64,000 nucleotides of DNA. Source: Bacteroidales bacterium. Lineage in GTDB: Bacteria; Bacteroidota; Bacteroidia; Bacteroidales; UBA4181. The stretch spans positions 7,367 through 71,366 of the forward strand of contig JAFWVY010000010.1 in the NCBI GenBank assembly GCA_017523725.1, given 5' to 3'. The notes below the pieces were generated by a model, which was given only the letters and a program-made list of their open reading frames with translations, did no database searches and was not told where the DNA came from. Shown here in pieces: positions 14,639 to 56,542 of this stretch (positions are counted from its first letter, which is position 1; each line of letters starts with the position of its first letter). The position numbers and the translations under genes were made by a program.

Positions 14639-14647
14639 GGGGATGTT

Positions 14648-15334: not shown

Positions 15335-15349
15335 AGTTCCAGTTCAGTT

Positions 15350-15385
15350 AAAAAAGGCCGACCAAACAGTTTGACCGGCCTTTTT
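15350..15385 (-). terminator. Rho-independent terminator after the SSF symporter gene
   Basis: aaaaaaGGCCGaccaaacagtttgacCGGCCttttt. The minus strand reads a hairpin followed by T6, 16 nt after the stop at 15401. Confidence 0.55.
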
Positions 15386-15400
15386 CGTTAAGGGTTGCGA

Positions 15401-17260
15401 CTACCAGAATACAGCGTACAGGGTAGCGATGATAATGACGATGCCGAGGGCACCCAGGAAGAATCCACTGTTGGTCTCGAACAGTTCGGTCTTGATTTCG
15501 TAAGCCTTGTCATCTTGCGATGTCGTGCAGGCGTTCGAGAACATGATAACCGAGATGAAGCCCAGCAGGAAGACCAGTACGAAGATGGATTCGAATCCGA
15601 GATTCAGGATGCCGCAGCCGAACAGGTTGGTTCCCCAGATCAGGCCGGCGATAAGGCAGAGACCGGACAGGACAGCGCAGATCCAACCCGCATTGCGGAA
15701 GGAGGCTTTCGTCTTGTCACTCAGCGGAGCAGCGGGAATACGGTGCGTCTTATCGGTGAAGGTCAGCAGCACGGCGCAGATAATCAGCGTGATGGCCACA
15801 TAGCCCATACGCAGGATGAACGGCAGGTCCGGAAGCAGGATCTTCATGGCGATACCGACCGGGATGGTGATGATCGTGGTCCACAATGCGGCGCGGTTGG
15901 TCGCCTTTCTCCACAGCAGACCCATGCCGAAGACCACCACGACTCCCGGATAGATGAATCCGGTGTATTCCTGGATGTACTGGAAGGCCTGGTCCAGACC
16001 GCCCAGCAGGGGCTTCGCAGCGATCATGGCGATGACCAGGGCGGTGATAGCCGTGATACGGCCGATGCTTACCAATTGCTTTTCAGAAGCTTTCGGGTTG
16101 ATGAGCTGTTTGTAGATATCCATGGTGAAGACCGTGGAGGTGCTGTTCAGCATGGAGGCCAGCGAAGAAACGATGGCGGCGACAAGCGCGGCGAATGCCA
16201 GACCGCGGATTCCCGTGGGAGCGAAGTTGCGCAGCAGCCAGGGGTATGCGTCGTCGGCGATGGAAATCTTGCCTTGGATGCCGGCCGGCAGCAGTTCGGG
16301 ATTGGAGAACATCACATAGGCGGTAATGCCCGGAATAACCACGATCAGCGGGATGAGGATCTTGAGGTATCCGGCGAAGATCAGACCTTTCTTTGCTTCC
16401 TGCAGGTTCTTGGCGGCCAGACCTTTCTGGATGATATACTGGTTGAATCCCCAGTATCCCAGATTGGTAAGCCACATGGCACCGAAGATGACGGCCAGAC
16501 CCGGAAGGTCTTTGAACAGGTCGGGTTTCACGTTCTTGTCGATAATCATGTTGAAGTGCATGTCGCCCGGGGTCTCTCTGACTTTGGCCAGAATCATCTT
16601 GAACCCTTCGATGACACCACCCTGGTCGCCGGAAATGGCGTTCAGGGCGAAGGCCGCCGTAATCAGACCACCGCCGACCAGGAACACCACCTGGATAACG
16701 TCTGTCCAGGCAACTGCTTTAAGGCCGCCGTAGATGGAATAGATACCGGCGAAGAGCAACAGGCCGATGACACCGTATGTCGTGGGAATGCCGATAATCT
16801 GCTGCATGGCCAGGGCGCCGAGCCAGGCGACCGACGTCAGATTGACGAAGATGTACACCAGCAGCCAGAAGAACGAGAAGAAAAATGCCACGCCTTTTCC
16901 GTAACGTTCACGGGTGAGTTGCGGCATCGTGAAGATGTTTCGGTCGATCATGGGGGGCAGCAGGAATTTCGCCACAAGAATCAGTGTGACGGCGGCGAGC
17001 CATTCGTAGGCCGCGATGCCCAATCCGATACGGTATCCCGAACCGGACATGCCGATAAAGTGTTCAGCTGAAATGTTGGCGGCGATAAGCGACGCGCCGA
17101 TTGCCCACCAGGCCAGCGTTCCGCCAGCAAGGAAATAATCTTTTGTGTCTTTCTCCTCACCTTTCTTGGTGCGCGAAAGCCACAGTCCCAAACCGACGAT
17201 CACCAAGGCATACAGCACAAAGATGACATAGTCGGCTGTCTGAAAACCAGCATTGTTCAT
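15401..17260 (-). CDS. Sodium:solute symporter family (SGLT-like) sugar transporter
   Basis: About 14 TM helices and SSF signatures (DYFLAGGTLAWWAIGASLIAANISAEHFIGMSG). Start trimmed to ATG 17260 (MNNAGFQTADYVIF...). Confidence 0.9.
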   Translation of the reverse strand: MNNAGFQTADYVIFVLYALVIVGLGLWLSRTKKGEEKDTKDYFLAGGTLAWWAIGASLIAANISAEHFIGMSGSGYRIGLGIAAYEWLAAVTLILVAKFLLPPMIDRNIFTMPQLTRERYGKGVAFFFSFFWLLVYIFVNLTSVAWLGALAMQQIIGIPTTYGVIGLLLFAGIYSIYGGLKAVAWTDVIQVVFLVGGGLITAAFALNAISGDQGGVIEGFKMILAKVRETPGDMHFNMIIDKNVKPDLFKDLPGLAVIFGAMWLTNLGYWGFNQYIIQKGLAAKNLQEAKKGLIFAGYLKILIPLIVVIPGITAYVMFSNPELLPAGIQGKISIADDAYPWLLRNFAPTGIRGLAFAALVAAIVSSLASMLNSTSTVFTMDIYKQLINPKASEKQLVSIGRITAITALVIAMIAAKPLLGGLDQAFQYIQEYTGFIYPGVVVVFGMGLLWRKATNRAALWTTIITIPVGIAMKILLPDLPFILRMGYVAITLIICAVLLTFTDKTHRIPAAPLSDKTKASFRNAGWICAVLSGLCLIAGLIWGTNLFGCGILNLGFESIFVLVFLLGFISVIMFSNACTTSQDDKAYEIKTELFETNSGFFLGALGIVIIIATLYAVFW

Positions 17261-24994: not shown

Positions 24995-26563
24995 CTATGC
25001 CGGCTGCAGCACCACAAACGGAACAATCATCTCTTCCATGGAGATGCCGCCGTGCTGGAAGGTCTGGTGATAGTAACTGGCGAACTGGTTGTAATTTTTC
25101 GGATAGATAAGATAATCGCCGCCGGATGCGAAAATGTAACTGGTGGTGAGCGCTGTCCGTGGCAGTTGGCAGGAAGCCGGCTCCCGGACCTCGAAAATGC
25201 GTTTGTGTTCGAAGGCCAGTTTGCGCCCCTGTTTGTAGCGGATGTTGACTGAGGATTCGCGGTCGCCGACGACCCGGACGGGATTGGTCACCCGGATGGA
25301 GCCGTGGTCGGTGGTAATGATGACACGGACTCCTTTGGCGGCCATTGCCCGGAGCAGGTCCAGCAGCGCAGAATGCTCGAACCATGTGCGCGTCAGGGTG
25401 CGGTAGGCGGCTTCGTCGCCGGACAGCTGTCGGATCATGTCGCTGTCGGTTCGCGCATGTGAAAGCTGGTCCACAAAATTGAACACCAGCGCGATGAGGT
25501 CGTATTGCAGATATTGCCCGAGTTTCTCCGGCAGTTTCTTCCCGGCTTTTTCAGAGGCGATTTTCTCGTAAATCATCCGGACCGGAAGACGGCGTCGTCT
25601 CAGATGTTGCTCGAGCAGTTGCTGCTCGAATTCGTTATGTCCTTCGTCGTGCTCTTCCTCCCCTGTCCAGTATTCCGGCATGGACCGCTGGATCTGCAGC
25701 GGCAGCAGCCCGGCGAAGAGCGCGTTCCGTGCGTACTGGGTCACTGTGGGCAGGATGGCGCTGTACAGCAATTCCTTTTCGGTCTTGAAGTAGGGTGCAA
25801 GCAGCGGGGCGAAGGCCTTCCACTGGTCGTACCGCATGTTGTCGATGACCAGCAGGCAGGTAGGCTGTCCGGTTGCAAGCATCGGGAAAAGTTCCTTCTG
25901 CAGGATGGTGGAAGAAAGAAGCGGGGTCTCCGGACTGTCCGGTGATTGCATCCAGCCGGTGTAGTTCTGCCGGACGAACTTGGCGAAGGCGGCATTGGCA
26001 TCGTTTTTCTGGGTCTGCAGGATGTCCTGCAGCAGGTTGTCTCCGAGCGATTCCAGCTCCATATCCCAGTAAACAAGTTTCCGGTAGAGCTCAGCGTAGT
26101 CTCCGAACGAACGGGCGGCTGCGATGTCGCCGCCCAGTTCTGCGAACGTGGTCTGGTAGGCCGTGGTGGTCCGGGCGCTGACCAGACGCCGGCTTTCGGT
26201 GTTTTTCTTGATGCTCGACAGAATCTGGTTCGGATGGACCGGCTTGATGAGGTAGTCGGCGATTTTGGCCCCGATGGCCTCATCCATGATGTTCTCCTCT
26301 TCGCTTTTGGTAATCATGACCACGGGCGTGTCCGGTGCGGTCATCTTGATGCGTGAAAGCGTCTCGAGACCGCTGAGCCCCGGCATGTTTTCGTCCAGCA
26401 GAATCAGGTCGGCCTGAATCTCTTTCAGCATGTCGATGGCGTCGTAACCGTTGGTCGCCGTGCGTACGTCGTACCCCTTGCCTTGCAGGAACAGGACGTG
26501 CGGGCGGAGCAGGTCGATCTCGTCGTCGGCCCAGAGAATGGTTATTCTGCGATCCGTGCTCAT
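24995..26563 (-). CDS. porX: PorX-type T9SS response regulator: CheY-like receiver fused to a PglZ/alkaline-phosphatase-superfamily domain
   Basis: Receiver ITILWADDEIDLLRPHVLFLQGKGYDV...LILLDENMPGLSG...KPV. PglZ motifs VIDNMRYDQW and ITTDHGS. 522 aa, the size of P. gingivalis PorX. ATGA overlap with the upstream ORF. Confidence 0.8.
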   Translation of the reverse strand: MSTDRRITILWADDEIDLLRPHVLFLQGKGYDVRTATNGYDAIDMLKEIQADLILLDENMPGLSGLETLSRIKMTAPDTPVVMITKSEEENIMDEAIGAKIADYLIKPVHPNQILSSIKKNTESRRLVSARTTTAYQTTFAELGGDIAAARSFGDYAELYRKLVYWDMELESLGDNLLQDILQTQKNDANAAFAKFVRQNYTGWMQSPDSPETPLLSSTILQKELFPMLATGQPTCLLVIDNMRYDQWKAFAPLLAPYFKTEKELLYSAILPTVTQYARNALFAGLLPLQIQRSMPEYWTGEEEHDEGHNEFEQQLLEQHLRRRRLPVRMIYEKIASEKAGKKLPEKLGQYLQYDLIALVFNFVDQLSHARTDSDMIRQLSGDEAAYRTLTRTWFEHSALLDLLRAMAAKGVRVIITTDHGSIRVTNPVRVVGDRESSVNIRYKQGRKLAFEHKRIFEVREPASCQLPRTALTTSYIFASGGDYLIYPKNYNQFASYYHQTFQHGGISMEEMIVPFVVLQPA

Positions 26564-34390: not shown

Positions 34391-35503
34391 ATGTCAAAAG
34401 TATATTTTACGAATCTCAGGACGAAACCCAATGACAATCTGCTTGATAAGCTTGAAAGGTTGGTGCGGAGAGCCGGCATGATGTCCATTGCGTTCGACAA
34501 ACAGTTCGTCGCACTCAAGATCCATTTCGGCGAGACCGGCAACATGGCCTATCTGCGCCCCAACTATGCCGCGCGCATGGTCAGTATCATCCGAGGGGCC
34601 GGCGGGAAGCCGTTCCTTACCGACAGCAATACGCTTTACTCCGGATACCGGAACAATGCGGTAGACCACCTGGAATGCGCCGTGGCGAACGGTTACAATC
34701 CGTTGTCGACGGGTGCGAACGTCATTATCGCGGATGGTCTGAAGGGAACGTCCTACAGAGAAATCGACCTCGGAGGGAAGTACTGCCCGAAGCCGAAGAT
34801 CGGCGCGGCTGTCGCTGATGCTGATATCGTCATTTCGCTGAATCATTTCAAGGGGCATGAGATGGCCGGATTCGGCGGGGCGCTCAAGAATCTGGGCATG
34901 GGCAGCGCGTCCGTGGGAGGCAAGCTGGAACTGCACGCAGCGTCCAAGCCCTACATCGACACGCAGTCCTGCCGGGGCTGCGGAGTCTGTGCCCGTTACT
35001 GTGCGCAGCAGGCCATTGCCATCGTGGACCGCAAGGCGTCGATAGACCATGCAAAGTGCGTGGGATGCGGACAATGCGTGGCGCTCTGCCAGTTCGAGGC
35101 GGCCGTCGTGAACCAGGACGAGACGTCCGAACGTCTCAACTACAAAATCGCGGAATATGCACAGGCTGTTGTCAAGGGCAAGCCGAATTTCCATGTCAAT
35201 TTCATCATGAATGTGTCGCCGGAATGTGACTGCTGGGGCCATAATGATGCGGCCGTCGTGCCCGACCTGGGCATCATGGCATCGTTCGATCCCGTTGCGC
35301 TGGACATGGCTTCGGCCGACATGGTGAACAAGGCGCCGGTGCTGCACACGCACAACCGGCTCGGCGACAAGTACCCGGACGACGATCTCTGCGGCCAGGA
35401 CAAGTTCCACCTGATTCATCCCGACACCGACTGGCTGGCCGGCCTGCAGTATGCCGAGCAGATAGGCCTGGGCAGTATGACGTATGATCTCATCGAAGTA
35501 TAA
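34391..35503 (+). CDS. DUF362-family protein with an inserted 2x[4Fe-4S] ferredoxin module, function unknown
   Basis: MSKVYFTNLRTKPNDNLLDKLERL...KIHFGE...FLTDSNTLY (DUF362 core). Two CxxCxxCxxxC motifs (CRGCGVCARYC, CVGCGQCVALC). Start trimmed to ATG 34391. Confidence 0.8.
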   Translation: MSKVYFTNLRTKPNDNLLDKLERLVRRAGMMSIAFDKQFVALKIHFGETGNMAYLRPNYAARMVSIIRGAGGKPFLTDSNTLYSGYRNNAVDHLECAVANGYNPLSTGANVIIADGLKGTSYREIDLGGKYCPKPKIGAAVADADIVISLNHFKGHEMAGFGGALKNLGMGSASVGGKLELHAASKPYIDTQSCRGCGVCARYCAQQAIAIVDRKASIDHAKCVGCGQCVALCQFEAAVVNQDETSERLNYKIAEYAQAVVKGKPNFHVNFIMNVSPECDCWGHNDAAVVPDLGIMASFDPVALDMASADMVNKAPVLHTHNRLGDKYPDDDLCGQDKFHLIHPDTDWLAGLQYAEQIGLGSMTYDLIEV

Positions 35504-36022: not shown

Positions 36023-37417
36023 ATGAGAAACACTTACAACTTGGCTTATGTGCTGTTCATCGCCCTGATCTCGGCGATGGGCGGGCTGCTGTTCGGTTAC
36101 GACTGGGTCGTCATCGGCGGAGCTGTCAATTTCTATCAGACATTCTTCAATATCGGAGACAATACGGTCCTGCAGGGCGTGGCGACCAGCATCGCGCTGG
36201 TGGGCTGTCTGTTCGGAGCGGTGTTCGCCGGTGCGCTGGCCGACCGTTACGGCCGCAAGCCGCTGCTGATCATTGCGGCTTTCCTGTTCACGATTTCGGC
36301 GGTTGCGACCGGTTTGTTCAATGTCTTTTCGCTGTTCTGCATCGCCCGTTTCGTCGGCGGTGTCGGCATCGGCATAGCCTCGGCGCTCTCTCCGATGTAT
36401 ATCGCTGAGATTTCTCCGGCGGATATCCGTGGCAAGCTGGTTTCGCTGAACCAGATGACCATCGTTTTCGGTATTCTGGCCGCGCAGATCGCCAACTGGG
36501 CCATCGCGCGTCCCGATATCGTATCGGTAGCCGGACTCCACGTCATTGACCCATGGAACATCGAACGTGGCTGGCGGTGGATGTTCTGGGCAGAAACCAT
36601 TCCGGCCGCCCTGTTCCTCATCATGGCCTTCTTCATTCCCGAAAGTCCGCGGTGGACAGCCTTGCACGGCCGGATCGACCAGGCCCACCAGACGCTGGCC
36701 CGCATCGGCGGAGACCATCATGCCGAACTCGAACTGGCGGCCATTCAGGCATCTGCTGCGGCAGAGGTCTCGAAGGAGAAAGTGACGCTCAAGGAACTGT
36801 TTGTCAAGCGTTATGCCAGAATCCTTTCATTGGGTATCATCATTGCGGTGTTCCAGCAGTGGTGCGGAACGAACGTGATCTTTATCTACGCGCAGGATGT
36901 CTTCGCCGGTGCCGGCTATTCCATCAGTGAGGCCTTCCTCAATATTGTGGTCACTGGCATCGCCAACGTGCTGTTCACATTTGTTGCCATCTATACCATC
37001 GACCGCTGGGGCCGCCGTTCGCTGATGCTGTTCGGTGCCATTTCGCTGGCCATTATCTATGCCGTGCTCGGTACCTGCTATGCGATGCACGTCCAGGGCA
37101 TGTTCATGGTGTTGCTGACGGTGATGGCAATCGCCTGCTACGCCATGTCGCTCGCCCCGGTCACCTGGGTGCTGCTTTCCGAGATTTTCCCCAACCGCAT
37201 CCGCGGCGTGGCCATGGCCACCTGTACGTTCATGCTCTGGGTGGGCAGCTGCACGCTGACTTTCCTGTTCCCGTCCATGAACGCTTCGCTCGGCAGCAGC
37301 GGTTCATTCTGGATTTATGCCCTCATCTGCGCGGCCGGGTTCTGCTATTTCCTCAAGTACTGCCCCGAAACCAAGGGTAAGGCGTTGGAAGATCTCGAGA
37401 AGGAACTTGTTGATTAG
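36023..37417 (+). CDS. MFS sugar porter (XylE/GLUT-like sugar:H+ symporter)
   Basis: 12 TM helices. Sugar-porter signatures GGLLFGYDWVVIGGA, LADRYGRKP, PESPRW and TIDRWGRR. Confidence 0.9.
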   Translation: MRNTYNLAYVLFIALISAMGGLLFGYDWVVIGGAVNFYQTFFNIGDNTVLQGVATSIALVGCLFGAVFAGALADRYGRKPLLIIAAFLFTISAVATGLFNVFSLFCIARFVGGVGIGIASALSPMYIAEISPADIRGKLVSLNQMTIVFGILAAQIANWAIARPDIVSVAGLHVIDPWNIERGWRWMFWAETIPAALFLIMAFFIPESPRWTALHGRIDQAHQTLARIGGDHHAELELAAIQASAAAEVSKEKVTLKELFVKRYARILSLGIIIAVFQQWCGTNVIFIYAQDVFAGAGYSISEAFLNIVVTGIANVLFTFVAIYTIDRWGRRSLMLFGAISLAIIYAVLGTCYAMHVQGMFMVLLTVMAIACYAMSLAPVTWVLLSEIFPNRIRGVAMATCTFMLWVGSCTLTFLFPSMNASLGSSGSFWIYALICAAGFCYFLKYCPETKGKALEDLEKELVD

Positions 37418-37426
37418 AAATTGGAT

Positions 37427-39592
37427 ATGAAGAGAATTACTTTTTTATGCATGGTTTTCGGACTGCTGGTCTGCGGTGCAGCCTGCTCACGGCAGGAATC
37501 GCCGGCAGACAGCCGTCTGGAAATGACCTATGCGTGGCAGAAAATAAGCCATCCCGATGTGGAACGTGTTGCTGCACAGTTTGCCACGCCGCCGGCCGAG
37601 AATGCTCCTTGGGTCATCTGGGGATGGGATGGACCGATGACGGAGGAGGTCATCCGCCGCGACCTTGACTCGCTCGCTTCGAGAAACGTGAAAGCCGTGT
37701 CCATCGAGGCGGGATACAACATGGACAATGCGCCTTACCTTTCGGAAGGATGGTTCAAGAATGTGCGTTTTGCGGCGGAACAGGCGGCTGCGCACGGTAT
37801 GAAAGTGTGGATTATTGACGAAGGGAAGTATCCCAGCGGTTTTGCCGGAGGCAAGTTCTCGCAGGAAAAACCGGAACTCCGGATGCGCGGACTGAGCGTC
37901 GCGGAACGGGTGGAGGTCGAAGGTGGAGCGGCGTTTGACCGCACGTTGGACGACGCCACCATTGTCAGTGCCGTGGCTGTGTCGCGCCAGGACCGGCAGA
38001 AGGTGGAGGTGGTGCCCGTGACCGACGGCGCCATTCACTGGACGGCACCGGAAGGCTCGTCATGGCAGGTTTCGCTCGTCCGGGCCGACTTCCGGACGTC
38101 CGTGACCCGCGCTGCCAACAATCCCACGAGAGGCAAGGATGCCACCAACTTGCTTTGCGACTATCTTAGCGAAGCTGCTGTGGCTCAGTTTATCGAATTT
38201 ACGCATGAGCAGTATAAGAAGTATTGCGGCGATCTGTTCGGCTCGGTCATCCTGGGTTTCCGGGGCGACGAACCGGATTACGGGTTCACCCCGTGGACCC
38301 CGGACATGCCCGCGATATTCAAAGCGGCGAAAGGCTATGACATCGTGCCATACCTGGGGGCGGTGAATTCCGGTAACCTGCCGGATGCGCTTCAGCAGGT
38401 CAAGGCGGATTACTGGGATGTCTGGTCCGGCCTGTTCCGGGACAACTTCTTTACGCTTCAGGCCGACTGGCACCGCGCCAACGGCTTGGAGTATCTCGTG
38501 CACCTCAACCATGAGGACCGGATGACGTCGCTGATTACATCTTCGGGAGATTTCTTCCGCAACATGCGCCATGTGCAGATTCCCGGCGTCGATGCCATCT
38601 GGAACCAGATCTGGCCGGGCACCGTGGCGAATTTCCCGAAACTGGCCTCTTCCTCGGCCCACCTTTTCGGCAAACCCCGCGCCTTCAGCGAGAGTTTCGC
38701 CGCCTACAATCCCGGTCCCGATCCGGCTCAGGCCAAATGGGTCATTGATTACCAGCTGGCCCGGGGCATCAACGTGTTCGAGTTCATGTTCTGGGGGTCG
38801 TCCGCGCAGGGATGGCGCGGCCCGTCGGGCTGGATGGGCTCTCCGGAGTTCCCGGGGATCGTGCAGTATGCCAACCGGATGTGCTATGTTTTGTCGCAGG
38901 GAGTCCCCACGGCTTCGGTCGGCATCTATTATCCCACATCTTCGCTCTGGATGGGCGACCAGGCTTCGGACCAGAACACCTGGACGTTGGTGCAGTCCCT
39001 GTTGGACCGGCAGTATGATTTCGATTTTGTGGATGATCAGAGTCTTGGCGAAGTCATGACGCTGTCTGGCGGCAGACTGATGAATCTCAGCGGCCAGTCG
39101 TACGCCACCATTCTGGTGCCGGCGTGCCAGGTCCTGCCGCAAAAGGTTTACCAGCGGCTGAAGAAATTTGCGACGCAGGGCGGCAAGGTCTGTTTCATCG
39201 GATCTTTGCCGACGCGCTTGAGCGGGAAGACTTTCCGGGAGATGACCGAGGTGACCGCCCAGGATTTTGCTTGGGCGACGGTCGATCCGGAAAAGACGCT
39301 TTCGGATGTGACCGACGGCCTGCTGCCCGAAGCGGAGATCAAGCTGGACCAGCCATGTCGCAACTTTACCTTTGCGCACCGGAAACTGAACGATGCCGAG
39401 GTATATTTCCTTTTCAACGAGAACGATTCCCCGGTCTCCCGGACGGTGACCTTCGCTGCTTCCGGTAAAGCCGAGCTGTGGGATGCCGCTACGGGTGAAA
39501 TCACGCCGCTCGAAGCATCCGAAAAGGATGGCGGTATAGCTGTTCCCCTTTCGTTCGAAGGATGGGAATCAAAATGCGTGGTTATCAGATAG
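37427..39592 (+). CDS. Putative glycoside hydrolase lipoprotein, family not assignable by eye (its N-terminal region reminds me of GH106-type enzymes)
   Basis: Lipoprotein signal MKRITFLCMVFGLLVCGAAC. WGWDGPMTEEVIRRDLDSLASRNVKAVSIEAGY...MKVWIIDEGKYPSGFAGG. Lies 9 nt after the sugar porter. The track start 37421 is TTG; ATG 37427 is preferred. Confidence 0.6.
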   Translation: MKRITFLCMVFGLLVCGAACSRQESPADSRLEMTYAWQKISHPDVERVAAQFATPPAENAPWVIWGWDGPMTEEVIRRDLDSLASRNVKAVSIEAGYNMDNAPYLSEGWFKNVRFAAEQAAAHGMKVWIIDEGKYPSGFAGGKFSQEKPELRMRGLSVAERVEVEGGAAFDRTLDDATIVSAVAVSRQDRQKVEVVPVTDGAIHWTAPEGSSWQVSLVRADFRTSVTRAANNPTRGKDATNLLCDYLSEAAVAQFIEFTHEQYKKYCGDLFGSVILGFRGDEPDYGFTPWTPDMPAIFKAAKGYDIVPYLGAVNSGNLPDALQQVKADYWDVWSGLFRDNFFTLQADWHRANGLEYLVHLNHEDRMTSLITSSGDFFRNMRHVQIPGVDAIWNQIWPGTVANFPKLASSSAHLFGKPRAFSESFAAYNPGPDPAQAKWVIDYQLARGINVFEFMFWGSSAQGWRGPSGWMGSPEFPGIVQYANRMCYVLSQGVPTASVGIYYPTSSLWMGDQASDQNTWTLVQSLLDRQYDFDFVDDQSLGEVMTLSGGRLMNLSGQSYATILVPACQVLPQKVYQRLKKFATQGGKVCFIGSLPTRLSGKTFREMTEVTAQDFAWATVDPEKTLSDVTDGLLPEAEIKLDQPCRNFTFAHRKLNDAEVYFLFNENDSPVSRTVTFAASGKAELWDAATGEITPLEASEKDGGIAVPLSFEGWESKCVVIR

Positions 39593-41226: not shown

Positions 41227-41913
41227 CTATTCGAAATAGAACACGAGCGAATAAACCGAGGGCTTCATCGTGCGTATGCCGCTCCGTTCCGAGGCATAAC
41301 GGACGCAGTCCTGCAACCCCCAGGAGCCTCTGAATTCTATCGTGAATTTGAAAAAAGGCAGGTAGAAATCCACTCCGGCACCGGCGTCGAAATAAGGTTC
41401 GAAGCGTTGGAGTTCCAAATCGTATTTGTGTGCTGCCGTAAGCTCTTCATCCGGAGACACGGGTTCGCCGTCCATATCCAGGTCGAAGGCGATTTTATTG
41501 AGCAGATACCGCATCGAACCGCCGGCCGTGACATACGGACGGACATTGCTCGTCCGGTGCGATTTGTACTTTATCAGCAGGGGGATGTCCACATAGCTGA
41601 CCCGCATGCCGTGCTCTTCCTCTCCGAATTTCAGGTTACGGTCGCCGAAACTGATACCCGGTACGGTCCGCAGGTCGAAATACTCATGCAGCCGGAAGTT
41701 GGCCACCGCCTGGATGCTGAATCCGTAGGAAAGCATCTCCAGGCTGGAAGTGCCTTCGATGGCGCAGTCCATGGTGTTCAGTCCCAACGCGAACCCGAAA
41801 TGCACAGGATATTCGTCGTGGGTTGTCTCGTTGAGCAGCCATGAAGTGCGCTGCGCATGCGAGCAGACGCAGCCCAGGCACGAAAGGAGAAAGAGACAGG
41901 CGATTTTTCTCAT
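41227..41913 (-). CDS. porT: Small outer-membrane beta-barrel protein, PorT/SprT-like
   Basis: Signal MRKIACLFLLSCLGCVCSHAQ, 228 aa. HFGFALGLN, LRTVPGISFGDRNLKF, YVDIPLLIKYKSHRTSNVRPYVTAGGSMRY and FEPYFDAGAGVDFYLPFFKFTIEFRGSWGL resemble the PorT family pattern as I recall it. Start trimmed to ATG 41913. Confidence 0.5.
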   Translation of the reverse strand: MRKIACLFLLSCLGCVCSHAQRTSWLLNETTHDEYPVHFGFALGLNTMDCAIEGTSSLEMLSYGFSIQAVANFRLHEYFDLRTVPGISFGDRNLKFGEEEHGMRVSYVDIPLLIKYKSHRTSNVRPYVTAGGSMRYLLNKIAFDLDMDGEPVSPDEELTAAHKYDLELQRFEPYFDAGAGVDFYLPFFKFTIEFRGSWGLQDCVRYASERSGIRTMKPSVYSLVFYFE

Positions 41914-48679: not shown

Positions 48680-48713
48680 AAAAAAAGAGGGCGAAAGAAT
48701 GTCCACCCTCTTC
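48680..48713 (-). terminator. Weak rho-independent terminator after uxaC
   Basis: On the minus strand, AGAGGG(14-nt loop)CCCTCT is followed by T7. Short stem and a large loop. Confidence 0.4.
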
Positions 48714-48750: not shown

Positions 48751-50157
48751 TCAGAACTGGAAGAAGTTCTTGGCGTTGTTGTAGCTGATGTTCTCGACCA
48801 TCTGACCGATGAAATCGATCTCGGAGGCCGGCAGCAGTCCGTTTTCGACGTCGTTGCCCAGCAGGTTGCAGAGCGTCCGGCGGAAATACTCATGCCGCGG
48901 ATACGACAGGAAACTGCGCGAGTCGGTCAGCATGCCCACGAAGCGGCTGAGCAGGCCGAGCAGCGAAAGCGCGTTCATCTGTTTCTCCATGCCGTCTTTC
49001 TGATCCAGGAACCACCAGCCCGAGCCGAACTGGATCTTGCCGGCGACCGTTCCGTCCTGGAAGTTGCCCAGCATGGTAGCCACCACTTCGTTGTCACACG
49101 GATTCAGGTTGTAGATGATGGTCTTGGTGAGTTTGTCCTGCGAAGCCAGCCGGTTCAGGAATTTCGACATGGCCTTGGCCGTGTTGAAACTGCCGATGGA
49201 GTCGAATCCGGTGTCGGGGCCGAGCAGCTTGAACATGCGGGAGTTGTTGTCGCGGATGGCGCCATAGTGGAACTGCTGCGTCCAGCCTTTGGCATGGTCC
49301 ATCTCGCCGAAGATGACCATCATGGCCGATTTGAATTTCAGCACTTCTTCCCGGCTGAGCGTGGTGCCGCCGTACACTTTGTTGAAGATAGCCTTGATTT
49401 CGGCATCGGTGTAGTCTTCGGCATAGAATTCCTCGATGCCGTGGTCTGACAGCTTGCATCCCATCGAAGCGAAGAAATCCTGACGTTTCCGGAGAGCAAG
49501 GATCATGTCGTCGAACGAGGAAATGTTCACGCCGGACACATCGGAGAGTTTCTCGACGTAGGCGCGGAAATTGGCTGCGTTCTCGACGGCCATGGCCTTG
49601 TCGGGACGCCATGCCGGCAGCATCTTGATTTCAAAGCCGTCGTCCTTGACTTTCTGGTGGTATTCCAGCGAATCGACCGGGTCGTCGGTGGTGCAGACCA
49701 CCTCGACGTTGTAGCGACGCATGATGTTGCGGGCCGTGTAGGCGGGTGTGGCGAGCTTGGCGTTGCATTCGTCGAAGATCTCGCGCGCAGTGGCGGGGCT
49801 GAGCAGTTTCTCGATGCCGAACGCCGTCTTCAGTTCGAGGTGGGTCCAGTGATAGAGCGGATTCCGCATAGTGTACGGAACAGTCTCTGCCCATTTCTCG
49901 AATTTCTCCCAGTCGGTGGTGTCCTTGCCCGTGCAGTATTTCTCGTCGATGCCGTTGGTCCGCATCGCGCGCCATTTGTAATGGTCGCCGCCGAGCCAGA
50001 TTTCGGTGATGGAACGGAACTTGTAGTCATCGGCCACCATCTTCGGAATCAGGTGGCAGTGATAGTCGATGATGGGCATCTTGGCTGCATGCTCGTGAAA
50101 CAGTTTCTGCGCGGTTTCGGTCTGCAGCAGGAAATCTTTCGACATAAAATCTTTCAT
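48751..50157 (-). CDS. uxaC: Glucuronate isomerase (uronate isomerase)
   Basis: MKDFMSKDFLLQTETAQKLFHEHAAKMPIIDYHCHL...GGDHYKWRAMR. Confidence 0.95.
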   Translation of the reverse strand: MKDFMSKDFLLQTETAQKLFHEHAAKMPIIDYHCHLIPKMVADDYKFRSITEIWLGGDHYKWRAMRTNGIDEKYCTGKDTTDWEKFEKWAETVPYTMRNPLYHWTHLELKTAFGIEKLLSPATAREIFDECNAKLATPAYTARNIMRRYNVEVVCTTDDPVDSLEYHQKVKDDGFEIKMLPAWRPDKAMAVENAANFRAYVEKLSDVSGVNISSFDDMILALRKRQDFFASMGCKLSDHGIEEFYAEDYTDAEIKAIFNKVYGGTTLSREEVLKFKSAMMVIFGEMDHAKGWTQQFHYGAIRDNNSRMFKLLGPDTGFDSIGSFNTAKAMSKFLNRLASQDKLTKTIIYNLNPCDNEVVATMLGNFQDGTVAGKIQFGSGWWFLDQKDGMEKQMNALSLLGLLSRFVGMLTDSRSFLSYPRHEYFRRTLCNLLGNDVENGLLPASEIDFIGQMVENISYNNAKNFFQF

Positions 50158-50180: not shown

Positions 50181-50218
50181 AACGAAAAAATGCCGGCCGG
50201 AACGGGTCCGGCCGGCAT
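50181..50218 (-). terminator. Strong rho-independent terminator after the uxaE-like gene
   Basis: Perfect 12-bp stem ATGCCGGCCGGA/TCCGGCCGGCAT with a 5-nt loop, followed on the minus strand by TTTTTCGTT. Confidence 0.75.
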
Positions 50219-50229
50219 GGGAGAACATA

Positions 50230-51477
50230 CTACTGGAACAGACGCATGATGTGGCGGTCGTACATGTTTTCAATCACCTGCTGGCCTACGATGGCTTTGT
50301 TGCGCTTGAGGGCGTCGGTGTATTCCTTTCCATATTCGGCGGCCACCTTGTAACCCACGTGGATCAGCTGGCGGAAACTCGGATTGTAATTCGGATTGCT
50401 TTCGACGTGACGCAGTGTCTCGGCGAACTTCACGCCGTCCCATTTCTCGATTTCCTTCGGTGCCGGCAGTTTGGAGGCATCGATGTCGATGACGGTGGCA
50501 TACGGGGCGCAGAGTTCTTCCTGACGGCCGTAGGCGTTGGCGTAAATTCCCTTGGCCAGGTCCAGTGCGGCCTCGTCGGCCAGTGCCAGTCCGATGACTT
50601 CCTCAAGCCAGGTCGTACCGGCGGTTTTGAGGTGGATGCCGCTGTCGTGTTTTTTGATGAGGCTGCCCATGATGGGATAGATCGAGAATTTGTCACTGCC
50701 CGAGTGGATGCTCAGCTTCAGGTTGTCCGGAAGACCGAATTCCTTGATGGCGAACTTGATGACGAGCAGGTCTTCTTCGAATTCCTTGGTGAACTGGGCG
50801 ATGTCGCCGACATAGTCCACGCCCTTGTTGAAACGTCCCGTGAATTTGGGGGCGATGGTCTGGGCCGGGACATTGTTGGCGGCGAGTGCGCTCAGGATGA
50901 AGAACATTTCGATGGGGGTCTGCGGGTCGTTCACTTCGTCCATCGAAACCTCGGGGACGAAATTGTCGGCCCCCTTGACGGCAGCAATATGGCTGTAGAT
51001 CCGGCCGGCTTCCTCGGCAGCCCACAGGAACTTGTTGGCGGCTGCGACAATCACGTCTTTTGTGACGTTGAACGGTTTTTCGATGCCCGGAATGACCAGC
51101 GAGCCCATATATTTCTCATTCCTCTTGATGAAGGCGTCCACCGAGGCGGCCGAAGCCTGTTTGCCGATGAAGTCTGCCAGGTCGATGGTGAAGAAATCCG
51201 ACGAACTCATGAATTTGTCGACGTTCGACATGTTGATGTGGTCGGCATCCACGAAATAGGCGCCCGTGTAGCCGCAGGCCTTGACCGCCGCGTCGGCTTC
51301 GATGCGGGTGTCTTCGGGGACGGAGTTGACAATGGTGTGCTCACGGTTGGACTTGTTCCATACGGGAATGATTTCCAGATTCAGTTCCTTGCGTGCTTTC
51401 ATCAAAGCCTGTAACTGGGCTTCTCCTTGATGGGCGAAACGGTCGCCGATGCCGAATGAGTATTTTCCGATTTTCAT
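50230..51477 (-). CDS. uxaE: Tagaturonate/fructuronate epimerase (UxaE-family) candidate
   Basis: MKIGKYSFGIGDRFAHQGEAQLQALMKA...VWNKSNREH...YFVDADHI matches my recollection of the UxaE family. Adjacent to uxaC. Confidence 0.6.
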   Translation of the reverse strand: MKIGKYSFGIGDRFAHQGEAQLQALMKARKELNLEIIPVWNKSNREHTIVNSVPEDTRIEADAAVKACGYTGAYFVDADHINMSNVDKFMSSSDFFTIDLADFIGKQASAASVDAFIKRNEKYMGSLVIPGIEKPFNVTKDVIVAAANKFLWAAEEAGRIYSHIAAVKGADNFVPEVSMDEVNDPQTPIEMFFILSALAANNVPAQTIAPKFTGRFNKGVDYVGDIAQFTKEFEEDLLVIKFAIKEFGLPDNLKLSIHSGSDKFSIYPIMGSLIKKHDSGIHLKTAGTTWLEEVIGLALADEAALDLAKGIYANAYGRQEELCAPYATVIDIDASKLPAPKEIEKWDGVKFAETLRHVESNPNYNPSFRQLIHVGYKVAAEYGKEYTDALKRNKAIVGQQVIENMYDRHIMRLFQ

Positions 51478-51563: not shown

Positions 51564-51571
51564 TACATTTG
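51564..51571 (+). promoter_or_regulatory. Putative -7 box (TACATTTG) for the SDR gene
   Basis: Exact TAnnTTTG ending 71 nt upstream of ATG 51643, in the divergent AT-rich intergenic region. Confidence 0.4.
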
Positions 51572-51581
51572 CAAAAAAAAT

Positions 51582-51596
51582 GATGCCGTCGGCATC
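51582..51596. promoter_or_regulatory. Perfect 7-1-7 inverted repeat GATGCCG-T-CGGCATC (operator-like) just downstream of the -7 box
   Basis: Read directly from the sequence. It sits between the putative promoter and the SDR start codon. Confidence 0.3.
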
Positions 51597-51642
51597 TTGA
51601 ATGTGGCATTTCATCATTTCTAACATTAAAATACACCGCATC

Positions 51643-52491
51643 ATGACAACATCATTCGACGACTTGAAAGGTAAAGTATGTGTCTTTACCGGAGGCTACG
51701 GCGTACTTGGCAGTGCTCTGGCGCGCGGCCTGGCCGCAGTGGGCATCAAAACCGCCATCCTCGGCCCGAACGGCACCGCTGCCGCGGCGCTTGCGGCCGA
51801 ACTTCAGAAGGAATACGGCGTCAAATGTCTCGGCATTTCGTCCAGCGTGCTCGACAAGGATTCGCTGCTCGCCGCCAAGGAAACCATAAACAAGGAACTG
51901 GGCAAGATCGACATTCTCATCAACGGTGCCGGCGGCAACTCTCCGCTCGCGACCTGCGGCGTGGAGCAGATGGACGCTTCGTCGCTCGAGCACCTCGACC
52001 AGACTTTCTATGGTCTTGGCATGGAGGGATTCCAGAAAGTGTATGACTTGAATTTCAAGGGTATGCTGCTTTCTACGATGGTCTTCACGCAGGATATGCT
52101 CGAAATCGGCAAGGGCAATGTGCTGAACATTTCCTCGATGAATTCCTACCGTCCGCTCACCAAGATTCCCGCTTATTCGGCAGCGAAGGCGTCGCTGAAC
52201 AATTTCACGCAGTGGTATGCGGTGCACGTCGCCAAGGTGGGCATCCGGGTCAATGCCATTGCGCCGGGTTTCTTCCTGACCAAGCAGAACCGCTTCCTGC
52301 TCACCGACGAGCAGACCGGCGCGCTGAAACCGCGCGGCAACAAGATCATCGCCAATACGCCGATGGGCAAGTTCGGCGAACCGGACGACCTGATCGGGAC
52401 CATGCTGTTCCTGCTGAGCGACATGTCGTCGTTCGTCACCGGTGTCTGCATTCCGGTGGACGGCGGTTACAGCGCATTCGGCGGCGTATAG
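51643..52491 (+). CDS. SDR-family oxidoreductase, UxuB-type (D-mannonate/fructuronate oxidoreductase-like)
   Basis: TGGYGVLGSALA (TGxxxGxG), NGAG, and catalytic YSAAK. Sits in the hexuronate neighbourhood. Start trimmed to ATG 51643. Confidence 0.75.
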   Translation: MTTSFDDLKGKVCVFTGGYGVLGSALARGLAAVGIKTAILGPNGTAAAALAAELQKEYGVKCLGISSSVLDKDSLLAAKETINKELGKIDILINGAGGNSPLATCGVEQMDASSLEHLDQTFYGLGMEGFQKVYDLNFKGMLLSTMVFTQDMLEIGKGNVLNISSMNSYRPLTKIPAYSAAKASLNNFTQWYAVHVAKVGIRVNAIAPGFFLTKQNRFLLTDEQTGALKPRGNKIIANTPMGKFGEPDDLIGTMLFLLSDMSSFVTGVCIPVDGGYSAFGGV

Positions 52492-52511
52492 GCGCATCCC
52501 GTGCAGCATAG

Positions 52512-52547
52512 AGGGCGGCCGGAACCGTTCGGCCGCCCTTCTTTTTT
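52512..52547 (+). terminator. Strong rho-independent terminator after the SDR gene
   Basis: 10-bp perfect stem AGGGCGGCCG/CGGCCGCCCT, 8-nt loop, then TTCTTTTTT. Confidence 0.8.
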
Positions 52548-52597: not shown

Positions 52598-53878
52598 ATG
52601 TTATATTTCAGCAGAGGTTCGAAAGACGACCGTATCACTCCCGACGAAGTGCGTCGGATCCTGAAGGAAACCTTCGACAAGATGGGCCCGCGGAAACGCG
52701 TGCTGGCCATCCCGCCCGATTTTACCCGGTTCAACTCGTATGCAGGGCAGATTACCGAAATGGTCAACGATTATTTCGGCGACCGGCTGACCGATGTGAT
52801 GCCGGCGCTCGGTACGCATGCGCCGATGACGCCGGAGCAGGTCAAAACCATGTTCGGCCGTGTGCCGGCCGGGAAATTCCGTGTGCACGACTGGCGCAAT
52901 GACGTGGTGACGGTCGGTGAGGTGCCGTCAGAGTATGTGCACAAGGTGTCGGAAGGCCGGCTCGACTATGTGTGGCCGGCACAGGTCAACAAACTGCTGC
53001 TCGACCCGTCGTTCGACTTGATTCTGTCCATCGGGCAGGTGGTGCCGCACGAGGTCATCGGCATGGCCAACTACACCAAGAACCTGTTTGTCGGCGTGGG
53101 TGGTTCGGAAGGCATCAACAAAAGCCATTTCATCGGGGCGACCTATGGCATGGAACGCATCATGGGCCGGGCTTCGTCGCCGGTGCGCGATGTGATGGAG
53201 TATGCCCGTCAGCATTTTATCAAGGACCTGCCAATTGTCTTCATCCTGACGGTGATGGCCAAGAATCCCGCAACGGATGCCATGGACGTCAAGGGCCTTT
53301 TCATCGGAGACGACTTCGAATGTTTCCAGAAGGCGGCCGACTTGTCGCTCGAGACGAATTTCATCATGGTGGAGAAGGAAATCAAGAAGTGTGTCGTCTA
53401 TCTCGATCCGGAGGAATTCAAGAGCACGTGGTTGGGCAACAAGGCGGTTTACCGTACCCGCATGGCGCTGGCCGACAATGCCGAACTGATTGTCCTTGCA
53501 CCGGCGCTCAAGGAATTCGGCGAGGACAAGACCATCGATGGTCTCATCCGCAAATACGGCTACAAAGGGACGCCCCACACGCTGAAGTGTACGGCTGAGA
53601 ACAAAGACCTCCAGGACAACCTGGGCGCATCGGCCCATCTTATCCATGGCTCGTCCGAGGGGCGGTTCACCATCACTTATTGCCCCGGTCCGCTGGTGAC
53701 GCGGGAGGAAATCGAGGGCGTCGGTTTCAAGTATGGCGACCTGGCGGAAATGACGAAGCGCTATCCACCCGAAAGCCTGAAGGATGGCTGGAACACCATG
53801 CCCGACGGAGAGGAGATTTACTATATCTCGAATCCGGCGCTAGGCTTGTGGGCTTATCCGGACCGCTTCAAGGACTGA
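52598..53878 (+). CDS. LarA-like (lactate racemase N-terminal domain / DUF2088) protein; candidate nickel-pincer-dependent 2-hydroxyacid racemase/epimerase
   Basis: 426 aa. PALGTHAPMTPEQV and SIGQVVPHEVIGMANYTKNLFVGVGGSEGINKSHFIGA resemble the LarA His/Lys cofactor-binding segments. Start trimmed to ATG 52598. Confidence 0.7.
   Translation: MLYFSRGSKDDRITPDEVRRILKETFDKMGPRKRVLAIPPDFTRFNSYAGQITEMVNDYFGDRLTDVMPALGTHAPMTPEQVKTMFGRVPAGKFRVHDWRNDVVTVGEVPSEYVHKVSEGRLDYVWPAQVNKLLLDPSFDLILSIGQVVPHEVIGMANYTKNLFVGVGGSEGINKSHFIGATYGMERIMGRASSPVRDVMEYARQHFIKDLPIVFILTVMAKNPATDAMDVKGLFIGDDFECFQKAADLSLETNFIMVEKEIKKCVVYLDPEEFKSTWLGNKAVYRTRMALADNAELIVLAPALKEFGEDKTIDGLIRKYGYKGTPHTLKCTAENKDLQDNLGASAHLIHGSSEGRFTITYCPGPLVTREEIEGVGFKYGDLAEMTKRYPPESLKDGWNTMPDGEEIYYISNPALGLWAYPDRFKD

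Positions 53879-55084: not shown

Positions 55085-56542
<1,458 letters not shown>

Follow-up and report, generated by a model that had tools for sequence, protein, structure and literature searches.

We consider it fairly probable that the LarA-like gene of the window, by which we mean the whole 64-kb stretch of DNA that was analysed, encodes a GntE-type C2 epimerase, dependent on the nickel-pincer nucleotide (NPN), of LarAH group 18 (LarAH18) that interconverts D-mannonate and D-gluconate. The epimerase hypothesis is not new. A route from uronate to gluconate through an epimerase had already been put forward by Rodionova 2012 (cited in PMC6978723); Desguin 2020 hypothesised group 18 to be a hexonate epimerase and recorded its association with SDR and 6PGDH genes (PMC7583248, Table S1 and main text); the assignment is built into the family model NF052594; and a probable orthologue has been assayed (PMC11770544). 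The gene order reported in the preliminary description, with uxaC and a uxaE-like gene on the minus strand followed by a UxuB-type SDR, the LarA-like gene, pdxB and gnd on the plus strand, is confirmed by profile matches:

48751..50157, minus strand: uxaC, glucuronate/galacturonate isomerase (Pfam UxaC, 681.5 bits; NCBIfam NF002794, 660 bits)
50230..51477, minus strand: uxaE-like tagaturonate/fructuronate epimerase (Pfam PF16257, 185 bits, cut-off 27)
51601..52491, plus strand: UxuB-type SDR, fructuronate to D-mannonate (NCBIfam NF006132, D-mannonate oxidoreductase, 353 bits, cut-off 281)
52511..52547, plus strand: intrinsic-terminator-like hairpin (52511..52540) and T tract, between the SDR and LarA-like genes
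52598..53878, plus strand: putative hexonate (D-mannonate/D-gluconate) 2-epimerase gene of LarAH group 18, ATG start, 426 aa
53895..55058, plus strand: pdxB, 4-phosphoerythronate dehydrogenase family, 16 nt past the LarA-like gene (NF001309, 412 bits, cut-off 434)
55085..56542, plus strand: gnd, decarboxylating 6-phosphogluconate dehydrogenase, 26 nt past pdxB (TIGR00873, 769 bits)

The reading frame of the LarA-like gene has GC1/2/3 values of 0.57/0.38/0.76, with GC3 in line with that of the adjoining genes. A longer, GTG-started frame from 52442 was rejected because it extends over both the terminator and the 3' end of the SDR gene, and because it lacks homologue support, all homologues of the protein beginning MLY or MIY. 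The protein matches Pfam Lar_N (PF09861) at 35.2 bits (cut-off 23.3) and NCBIfam NF052594 at 655.8 bits, above the curated equivalog cut-off of 500, with residues 10-419 aligned to profile positions 2-410 of 411. These matches, together with a fold search that returned only LarA-family structures, bear out the earlier placement of the protein in the LarA superfamily. NF052594 is named "nickel-dependent putative hexonate epimerase" (NPN_18_hexonate) and corresponds to LarAH group 18 ("G2E3") of Desguin et al. 2020 (PMC7583248). Among the NCBIfam models, only this one clears its cut-off. The protein is 59-61% identical to the listed group-18 members ACP_2683 and Acid345_4308, its residues at 20 diagnostic positions are those of the group-18 row in Dataset S1 (PMC7583248), and we found no protein-level difference from the group, which also lists a member from the Bacteroidales, Tannerella forsythia BFO_3309. 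Paludibacter, Draconibacterium and Mariniphaga sediminis are further isolates whose genomes carry a gene of this group. Exact-sequence look-ups with three proteins of the window returned no record. A cluster representative listed at 100% identity, P0001, lies on MAG contigs of GCA_024699385.1 and GCA_016283675.1; in GenBank this identical protein carries the name "lactate racemase domain-containing protein".

All of the LarA-like His and Lys motifs quoted in the preliminary description are present: PALGTHAP (H74), VPHEV (H151), YTKN (K161) and NKSH (H177). H74 and H151 correspond to the catalytic histidine pair of LarA (H108, H174), K161 to the Lys184 tether, H177 to the His200 nickel ligand, and D41, R44 and K282 to LarA D72, R75 and K298; all are invariant in 203 relatives. 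The spacing of 10 residues from H151 to K161 and 16 from K161 to H177 is exactly that of LarA, and the phosphate-binding Asp and Arg of the Lactiplantibacillus plantarum enzyme are likewise equally spaced. By analogy with LarA, His74 and His151 would alternate as base and acid while substrate C2 transiently gives up a hydride to C4 of the NPN pyridinium, the cofactor being held by Lys161 and His177, with His177 ligating nickel. The group-18 residues HEV (151-153), WLGNK (278-282) and SAHLIHGS (345-352) are present as well, in the row shared by ACP_2683 and BFO_3309 (Dataset S1, PMC7583248).

The same positions bear on the suggestion, which might be drawn from the GenBank name of P0001 and the Lar_N match, that the enzyme is a lactate racemase. 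Lactate racemases have F, F, W and E/Q at LarA positions 175, 176, 358 and 359 (PMC11770544), whereas the window protein has E152/V153 in place of F/F and no Trp in its alpha-14 segment, that is, no counterpart of Trp358. LarA-type models are unmatched, and neither lactate-related genes nor a lar operon lie nearby, so that we give this reading almost no credence. Turning to the preferred reading, the 2024 signature of GntEs is E, V, A and H at LarA positions F175, F176, W358 and T359 (PMC11770544). E152 and V153 match it; A346-H347 fall in alpha-14, yet the 2020 register reads L/I there, and with pLDDT <50 the comparison is ambiguous. In the AF2 model it is this alpha-14 substrate segment, SAHLIHGS, that has the lowest confidence, a point that counts against a D-mannonate/D-gluconate assignment.

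The AF2 model as a whole has a pLDDT of 76.6, and in the fold search all 17 significant PDB matches were to LarA-family structures (E <=1e-10). The best was 4NAR, T. maritima GntE2 (TM0442, group 20), the nearest solved structure, which matches at E 7e-28 by sequence and at E 1e-23 with a TM of 0.69 by fold and shares the H-E-V/S loop, although it belongs to another LarAH group and is only ~19% identical in structural alignment. L. plantarum LarA (5HUQ) has the same fold (Foldseek E ~7e-11), but by sequence it gives no phmmer match at E <1. Set among characterised LarA homologues, the protein is in the superfamily branch that contains demonstrated D-gluconate 2-epimerases (NF052594; GntE2 as best match), as had been anticipated.

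Activity in this branch is known from the literature. D-mannonate has served as substrate in assays of GntE1 and GntE2 (PMC7583248), and LarAH15 of Phytophthora nicotianae is a narrow-spectrum D-mannonate/D-gluconate epimerase with a kcat of 111 per s (PMC11770544, Urdiain-Arraiza et al. 2024). The LarAH15 cloning primer encodes MATLLFAEG, matching the MTLLFAEGSK... of the group-18 entry PITG_09435, and judged by this primer-encoded N-terminus LarAH15 appears to be the orthologue of PITG_09435. A database search with the PITG_09435 fragment returned only two exon-sized pieces. LarAH15 and the window protein both carry the motif PPDFTRFxSYA (P0241), although LarAH15, unlike the window protein, is eukaryotic. 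Two points from the literature weigh against our assignment: we found no assayed bacterial group-18 enzyme there, and the assayed GntEs have Km values for free mannonate of 9.4-120 mM (PMC7583248, PMC11770544).

Several signals accompany the genes in the window. The sequence TACATTTG at 51564..51571 (+), upstream of the SDR gene, fits the Bacteroidetes -7 consensus, TAnnTTTG, and is a candidate promoter judged by sequence; the NF006132 alignment to the SDR begins at residue 19, and the true start of this gene is probably the ATG at 51643. A terminator-like hairpin (50218..50190) follows the uxaE-like gene. The strong terminator that the preliminary description raised as a caveat is indeed there, with a 13-bp stem containing 9 G-C pairs, a loop of 4 and then CTTTTTT (tail CTTTTTTATC), and it is identical in the related loci L001 and L002. 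Because the operon of sister loci ends with the SDR gene, we read the hairpin as probably the SDR gene's own terminator, moved along with it in a rearrangement. Between the terminator and the LarA-like start codon we see no evident promoter, which argues against the main explanation; a sigma-70 promoter scan of the window is not valid for Bacteroidetes. The window gave no matches in Rfam or tRNA scans.

Every gene of the 64-kb window was annotated, and none is larB, larC, larE, a gluconokinase, uxuA, kdgK, eda, zwf or pgl. The canonical uxuA/kdgK/kdgA continuation is thus absent from the window, gnd is apart from zwf/pgl, and the remaining caveat of the preliminary description, the lack of gluconokinase and larBCE genes, was correct. 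Neither a PfkB kinase nor a GntK or FGGY gluconokinase is present in the window, the sole FGGY kinase being the ribulokinase AraB (12974..14638, 735 bits).

To place this neighborhood in a wider context, we compared 83 scanned loci, 81 of them independent and 44 with full flanks, calling genes by clustering all ORFs with a GC3 filter; on the contigs of P0001 the readable flank was 10 kb on each side. Across the 81 independent loci the usual string is LacI, SDR, a PfkB-type kinase (PfkB2), LarAH18, sometimes GFO and PdxB, and then Gnd. Where flanks are complete, the SDR is found in 35/44 loci, Gnd in 34/44, a kinase in 33/44, uxaC in 18/44 and the uxaE-like gene in 19/44, and gnd lies downstream of LarAH18 on the same strand within 4.5 kb in 38/52 related loci. 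The SDR-LarAH18-Gnd association recurs across phyla. The published context of group 18 includes SDR at 36% and 6PGDH at 32% (PMC7583248), and both genes flank LarAH18 in the window; the published associations of the group (SDR, 6PGDH, a ribokinase-family kinase and UxaC) are the same. The window locus departs from the usual arrangement: the kinase gene expected immediately upstream is missing, and the SDR gene and terminator occupy its place, which also counts against the main explanation.

Read as a pathway, this gene string would begin with UxaC converting glucuronate to fructuronate and galacturonate to tagaturonate, and UxaE converting tagaturonate to fructuronate. The UxuB-type SDR would then reduce fructuronate to D-mannonate, LarAH18 would epimerise D-mannonate to D-gluconate, and a kinase would supply 6-phosphogluconate, for which the candidate is the PfkB-type protein in most Bacteroidota relatives and GntK in Acidobacteria, the window itself having none. 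Finally, Gnd would yield ribulose-5-phosphate, CO2 and NADPH. Such a route would be redox-neutral, with UxuB using one NAD(P)H and Gnd making one, unlike the UxuA/KdgK/Eda branch. In L040, UxaC-KdgK-Eda-SDR-UxuA is followed by PfkB2-LarAH18-Gnd, so that both branches stand side by side. The route from fructuronate through D-mannonate, D-gluconate and 6-phosphogluconate to Gnd had been put forward in the preliminary description, and the parts that could be examined favour it, namely the family, the context, the acidobacterial GntK and L040. Its logic is that of the Thermotoga route (UxaE/UxuB/GntE/GntK/Gnd; Rodionova 2012), with UxaC, UxaE, an SDR-type fructuronate reductase, an epimerase, a kinase and Gnd. 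The Thermotoga kinase is named gluconate kinase (gntK), whereas most Bacteroidota relatives have a KDG-kinase-like PfkB protein, and Bacteroidia-type loci, unlike those of Thermotoga, often have pdxB and sometimes a GFO-family oxidoreductase ahead of gnd.

The identity of the kinase raises an alternative, that LarAH18 is a 6-phospho-D-mannonate/6-phospho-D-gluconate 2-epimerase and that the PfkB-type kinase of the relatives acts on mannonate first, feeding Gnd. PfkB2 is the upstream neighbour of LarAH18 in 42/70 loci, and in sister loci 3-6 nt separate its stop codon from the start of LarAH18. In Bacteroidota this protein is KDG-kinase-like and no gluconokinase: its best NCBIfam matches are all under their cut-offs, its best PDB match is the KDG kinase 2AFB, and it forms a separate clade with 30-32% identity to KdgK of the same genome, yet 81% identity between orders. 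A precedent for phosphorylation before epimerisation comes from Lactobacillus suebicus, whose extracts convert mannonate to 6-phosphomannonate and on to 6-phosphogluconate and do not turn free mannonate into gluconate (PMC6978723). The L. suebicus route (Valk et al. 2020) has the same UxaC, UxaE and UxuB steps, ends in the same way with 6-phosphogluconate and Gnd, and is redox-neutral; its order of phosphorylation and epimerisation is the reverse of that in our main explanation, and its genes were not identified. Km values in the millimolar range, as measured for GntEs acting on free mannonate, also fit a phosphorylated substrate, and we found no LarA homologue tested on 6-phosphomannonate in the literature.

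Several observations nevertheless favour free mannonate as the substrate. In the acidobacterial loci L048 and L082, a GntK/IdnK-type gluconokinase (NCBIfam, 145-146 bits, cut-off 114) is found beside LarAH18, and homologues from the same ORF cluster adjoin it in the acidobacterial L065 and L076. The group-18 orthologues next to these GntKs are 59-65% identical, with identical active-site residues, and E. coli GntK reportedly does not use mannonate, as cited in PMC6978723. For LarAH15 and GntE2, turnover of free mannonate is 111-197 per s (PMC7583248, PMC11770544), and the authors of the L. suebicus study pointed elsewhere, to an unlinked candidate gene (PMC6978723). We therefore regard a phospho-epimerase as unlikely, though it carries some weight, and the more specific proposal that PfkB2 and LarAH18 of Bacteroidota are the missing mannonate kinase/6-phosphomannonate 2-epimerase pair of the redox-neutral galacturonate route as somewhat more doubtful still. 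Were that pairing true, LarAH18 would be the first LarA homologue to act on a phosphorylated sugar acid. For the window organism we continue to infer free D-mannonate as the substrate.

A different sugar acid of the uronate pathway is also conceivable, with LarAH18 a merely GntE-like C2 epimerase of L-gulonate/L-idonate, D-altronate/D-allonate or an aldarate. Both NCBI and Desguin et al. purposely write "hexonate" and not gluconate, and GntE1 (group 19) is suspected of having another native substrate (PMC7583248). Further oxidoreductases adjoin LarAH18, with GFO/IDH/MocA an immediate neighbour in 18/72 loci and PdxB immediately downstream in 25/72, all of the latter of Bacteroidia type. Against these points, UxaC, UxaE and the SDR converge on D-mannonate, the string closes with Gnd, an enzyme that requires 6-phosphogluconate, gluconokinase adjoins LarAH18 in Acidobacteria, and the LarAH15 spectrum is narrow, covering gluconate and mannonate only (PMC11770544). 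Given this convergence, another sugar acid seems improbable, and D-mannonate/D-gluconate remains the preferred pair.

The neighbouring pdxB was described earlier as looking genuine, and this holds: the window protein matches Salmonella PdxB (3OET) over its full length at E 5e-69, and its NF001309 score falls just under the cut-off of 434, which the copies in L003, L056 and L066 exceed (453-463 bits). PdxB and the GFO oxidoreductase are not alternative occupants of one slot, as both co-occur. A PdxB-LarAH18 linkage outside Bacteroidota, suggested by two "Gammaproteobacteria" loci, was rejected because LarAH18 of these loci nests in a Draconibacterium clade. Related loci and profile matches yielded no positive evidence for PdxB as a disguised pathway enzyme; the operon-embedded PdxB-family dehydrogenase, acting on a phosphorylated 2-hydroxy acid, possibly has a pathway role beyond vitamin B6 synthesis.

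Cofactor supply is the remaining element of the proposed function. When the 83 loci were scanned for larB/C/E motifs, only two acidobacterial loci and a single spirochaetal one contained them: L048 and L053 carry larB and larE at a distance of 3-7 kb from LarAH18, and L082 has ORFs with LarB and LarC motifs together with an ORF that clusters with the larE genes of L048 and L053. In ~60 Bacteroidota-type loci no larB/C/E was found within 10 kb of LarAH18, which again weighs against the main explanation. When the spirochaetal LarB was used to query the whole database, every match was either from Chloroflexota or name-less, with no Bacteroidales names among them, and we found nothing in the literature on larBCE in Bacteroidales. 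This distribution, the kinase lost from the window locus and the strong terminator just ahead of the gene, which no recognisable promoter follows, could together indicate an apo-enzyme remnant, or an enzyme that works free of the nickel-pincer cofactor, in a genome without larBCE and the pathway kinase. The gene is, however, under strong purifying selection (dN/dS 0.06-0.11, similar to gnd), the cofactor-binding residues, Lys161 and His177 among them, are all invariant, and pdxB and gnd follow at close, operon-like distances. It has >8000 close homologues in metagenomes and occurs in at least 593 species representatives. Cofactor genes also need no linkage, LarB, LarC and LarE being missing from the group-18-associated genes in the published context table (PMC7583248). 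We consequently hold a remnant or cofactor-free enzyme to be very unlikely and presume, for the preferred GntE-type epimerase, a supply of the cofactor.

Should the assignment be correct, uronic acids from pectin and hemicellulose would enter the pentose-phosphate pathway in many gut and rumen Bacteroidales, by a redox-neutral route that would run instead of, or beside, the classical KDG route and would need the nickel-pincer cofactor. Models of carbon and redox flow in fibre fermentation would be affected, and these anaerobes would have a nickel requirement.

The preliminary description had proposed that fructuronate is reduced to D-mannonate by the SDR, epimerized to D-gluconate by the LarA-like protein, and passed via 6-phosphogluconate to Gnd. 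Pfam and NCBIfam annotation of every gene in the 64 kb window bore out the gene order that it gave; the strong terminator that it placed between the SDR and LarA-like genes is likewise present:

48751..50157, minus strand: uxaC (681 bits)
50230..51477, minus strand: uxaE-family gene (185 bits)
51601..52491, plus strand: SDR gene (D-mannonate oxidoreductase model, 353 bits against a cut-off of 281)
52511..52547, plus strand: terminator hairpin (13-bp stem, nine of the pairs G-C, then CTTTTTT)
52598..53878, plus strand: LarA-like gene (LarAH18), ATG start, 426 residues
53895..55058, plus strand: pdxB, beginning 16 nt past the LarA-like gene
55085..56542, plus strand: gnd (769 bits), beginning 26 nt past pdxB

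As also stated there, larB, larC, larE, gluconokinase, uxuA, kdgK, eda, zwf and pgl are all absent from the window; its sole FGGY kinase (12974..14638) is the ribulokinase AraB (735 bits), which lies beside an AraD-like class II aldolase and a sodium:solute symporter in an L-arabinose-type cluster (12974..17260, minus strand). The LarA-like gene looks native, since its codon-position GC (0.57/0.38/0.76) resembles that of the adjoining genes. We rejected an extended frame that would open with GTG at 52442: it runs over the 3' end of the SDR gene and the terminator, and homologues all start with MLY or MIY. Although the SDR ORF opens with an ATG at 51601, its family alignment starts only at residue 19, and the second ATG at 51643 (MTTSFDDLKG...) is the more likely start. 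Strong terminator-like hairpins follow both uxaE (50190..50218, minus strand) and uxaC (48684..48713, minus strand), so the two neighbors, though on one strand, may be transcribed separately.

The Pfam Lar_N match of the LarA-like protein is modest (35 bits), while the NCBIfam equivalog model NF052594, whose name points to LarA-homologue group 18 of Desguin et al. 2020 (PMC7583248), matches over the whole length with 655.8 bits against a cut-off of 500. The protein shares 59-61% identity with two listed group-18 members and carries the group-18 residues at the diagnostic positions of that study. LarA D72/R75 correspond to D41/R44 (PPDFTR), H108 to H74, H174 to H151 (with E-V next), K184, to which the nickel-pincer nucleotide is tethered as a thioamide, to K161, the nickel ligand H200 to H177, and K298 to K282; the H151-K161 and K161-H177 intervals are identical to the LarA spacing. 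None of these seven positions varies among 203 group-18 sequences, of which 83 come from loci of several phyla and 120 are database matches. The LarA-superfamily membership earlier read from His/Lys segments is confirmed. Among solved structures, a sequence search found only 4NAR (E 7e-28), a T. maritima protein afterwards shown to be the gluconate 2-epimerase GntE2. An AlphaFold2 model (pLDDT 76.6, pTM 0.75) matched 17 PDB chains at E ≤1e-10, all of the LarA family, with 4NAR at the top (E 1e-23, TM 0.69). Within the clade of the window, dN/dS of the gene is 0.06-0.11, a range that is shared with gnd and indicates strong purifying selection.

The proposed reaction has precedents. Rodionova et al. 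2012, as cited in PMC6978723, proposed mannonate to gluconate conversion for the Thermotoga LarA homologue gntE, located between fructuronate reductase and gluconate kinase genes, and noted homologues in Acidobacterium and Terriglobus. D-mannonate/D-gluconate epimerase activity has been demonstrated for LarAH groups 19 and 20 (Desguin et al. 2020, PMC7583248). For group 18, whose members include Tannerella forsythia BFO_3309 and Phytophthora infestans PITG_09435, Table S1 of the same paper lists as associated genes SDR (36%), 6-phosphogluconate dehydrogenase (32%), ribokinase-family kinase (16%), and MFS transporter, glucuronate isomerase and KduI (12% each). In 2024 the same laboratory described LarAH15 of Phytophthora nicotianae as a narrow-spectrum D-mannonate/D-gluconate epimerase with a Km of 9.4 mM and a kcat of 111 per s (PMC11770544). 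The LarAH15 forward cloning primer codes for M-A-T-L-L-F-A-E-G, in agreement with the internal MTLLFAEGSKTAELSDERL of PITG_09435, and two Phytophthora exon fragments extend this stretch into VIVPPDFTRFHSYA, the group-18 motif. On the basis of this N-terminus and the published grouping, LarAH15 appears to belong to group 18, so the proposed reaction has very probably been demonstrated already for an orthologue of the window protein.

In a survey that took a single genome for each species, relatives turned up in at least 593 species; we clustered the ORFs of 80 loci (up to 10 kb per side) together with those of two MAG loci from the same species as the window, annotated the recurrent clusters, and left the two same-species loci out of neighbor counts. 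Directly upstream of LarAH18 lies a PfkB-family kinase (PfkB2) in 42/70 loci and an SDR in 5/70, and directly downstream PdxB in 25/72, a GFO/IDH/MocA oxidoreductase in 18/72 and Gnd in 11/72; in 38 of 52 loci Gnd follows within 4.5 kb and is read in the same direction. The 44 fully flanked loci contain SDR (35), Gnd (34), a kinase (33), PdxB (24), UxaE (19), UxaC (18) and a LacI regulator (18). The fullest layout, carried by Prolixibacteraceae, Paludibacter and several Bacteroidales, has MFS-Eda-KdgK-UxaC-UxaE on one strand and LacI-SDR-PfkB2-LarAH18-(GFO)-PdxB-Gnd on the other. A Carboxylicivirga locus (L040) reads UxaC-KdgK-Eda-SDR-UxuA-PfkB2-LarAH18-Gnd on a single strand, so that the classical KDG branch and a LarAH18/Gnd branch both leave mannonate side by side. 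The GFO/IDH/MocA oxidoreductase (~337 aa) lies between LarAH18 and PdxB at L067:11363-12376 and in 22 other loci, from Prolixibacteraceae, Draconibacterium, Mariniphaga and Petrimonas; its IolG/Gfo6-like matches are all sub-threshold.

In Bacteroidota, PfkB2 (~359 aa) adjoins the 5' side of LarAH18 at L003:8918-9997, L063:7282-8361, L066:8470-9549 and about 40 more loci, and is not among the annotated genes of the window. In the window's sister loci, 3-6 nt separate its stop codon from the LarAH18 start. Its closest solved relative is the KDG kinase 2AFB, and none of the NCBIfam curated models claims it. It is distinct from the KdgK of the classical branch: it forms its own clade and shares only 30-32% identity with the Eda-linked KdgK encoded alongside it in a genome; between Prolixibacteraceae and Bacteroidales it retains 81% identity, above the conservation of LarAH18 itself. 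We regard PfkB2 as a candidate 6-kinase for hexonates (gluconate or mannonate). In the Acidobacteria loci L048 and L082, a canonical GntK/IdnK-type gluconokinase (145-146 bits against a cut-off of 114) lies beside LarAH18, UxaE and SDR, and acidobacterial L065 and L076 have homologues of the same ORF cluster. This gluconokinase is the best argument for free gluconate as the group-18 product, with PfkB2 as a non-orthologous hexonate kinase. The reverse order, in which the kinase would act first and LarAH18 would epimerize 6-phosphomannonate, is less probable but conceivable in Bacteroidota; it is known biochemically in L. suebicus (PMC6978723). Neither a distinct, highly conserved PfkB2 accompanying the epimerase in Bacteroidota nor the question of which step comes first was found in the literature searched.

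Nickel-pincer cofactor genes occur near some relatives: larB (282-288 bits) and larE (320-338 bits) lie 3-7 kb from LarAH18 in L048 (Edaphobacter) and L053 (Spirochaetota), the latter with an additional LarC-motif ORF, and L082 (Acidobacteriaceae) contains ORFs with LarB and LarC motifs along with one that clusters with these larE genes. This proximity ties group 18 to nickel-pincer biosynthesis. In Bacteroidota, every locus lacks larB/C/E within 10 kb of LarAH18, and the best 120 database matches to LarB include no sequences named as Bacteroidales; the invariant tether lysine and nickel-ligand histidine and the low dN/dS argue that the cofactor would be available. Near larE/larB, larC is split over two overlapping reading frames (L053:17117-18395 and L082:16253-17300, both minus strand), recalling the larC1/larC2 frameshift of Lactiplantibacillus plantarum. 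The window also encodes a DUF362 protein with two 4Fe-4S motifs (34391..35503, plus strand); as DUF362 is the outgroup of the LarA superfamily in a 2024 JBC tree, this is another relative of the LarA N-domain, albeit a very distant one.

In the LarAH18 tree, the window clusters with loci of the layout PfkB2-LarAH18-PdxB-Gnd-UxaE-SDR, of which it is a rearranged version, with the kinase missing, UxaE inverted and the SDR directly upstream of LarAH18. Because the SDR is the final gene of the sister operons, the hairpin is most simply the SDR's own terminator, moved with the rearrangement, which would account for the terminator that the preliminary description had raised as its first caveat. A putative Bacteroidetes-type -7 box, TACATTTG at 51564..51571, lies upstream of the SDR gene, with a small hairpin (51582..51596) between the two; no -7 box was seen in the 57 nt from the hairpin stem to the LarAH18 start. 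Kinase-less SDR-LarAH18 layouts also occur in five other loci (L024, L035, L046, L047 and L054).

The window PdxB looks, as previously judged, genuine: it belongs to the PdxB family and matches 3OET over its full length (E 5e-69), slightly under the NCBIfam equivalog cut-off (412 vs 434) because of two small insertions of 11 and 3 aa, and the copies of related loci L003, L056 and L066 pass that cut-off (453-463 bits). PdxB genes occur in 43 related loci, are missing from several Bacteroidota loci, and lie between LarAH18 and gnd only in Bacteroidia-type loci. Linkage outside Bacteroidota was rejected: in L050 and L056, MAG contigs binned as Gammaproteobacteria, LarAH18 nests in the Draconibacterium/Prolixibacteraceae clade and the LarAH18-PdxB order is of the Bacteroidia type, reflecting either mis-binning or recent transfer. 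PdxB evolves much faster than its neighbors, with 54-57% amino-acid identity where LarAH18 and Gnd of the same genomes have 79-91%. We read it as a genuine pdxB riding in the operon; a role in the uronate pathway itself is conceivable, although nothing supports it. An operon-embedded pdxB was not found in the literature searched.

Elsewhere in the window, a XylE-like sugar porter (36023..37417) and a GH106 rhamnosidase (37427..39592), with the arabinose cluster, fit a consumer of plant-cell-wall sugars. A fusion of a response regulator with a PglZ domain (24995..26563, minus strand) and a PorT/SprT gene (41227..41913, minus strand) are type IX secretion-related by family name and place the organism in Bacteroidota. 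A 555-aa ORF (6021..7688, minus strand) without a Pfam or NCBIfam match adjoins a FadL/TodX-like outer-membrane protein gene (4479..6002).

Group-18 membership, gene context and the assayed probable orthologue support a probable mannonate/gluconate-type epimerase. The finding is real and the reasoning behind it good, and it is already known: the family has a curated model, its function has been hypothesized in print on the same gene-context grounds, and that orthologue has been assayed. PfkB2, the operon-embedded pdxB and the order of phosphorylation and epimerization are modest leads rather than surprises.
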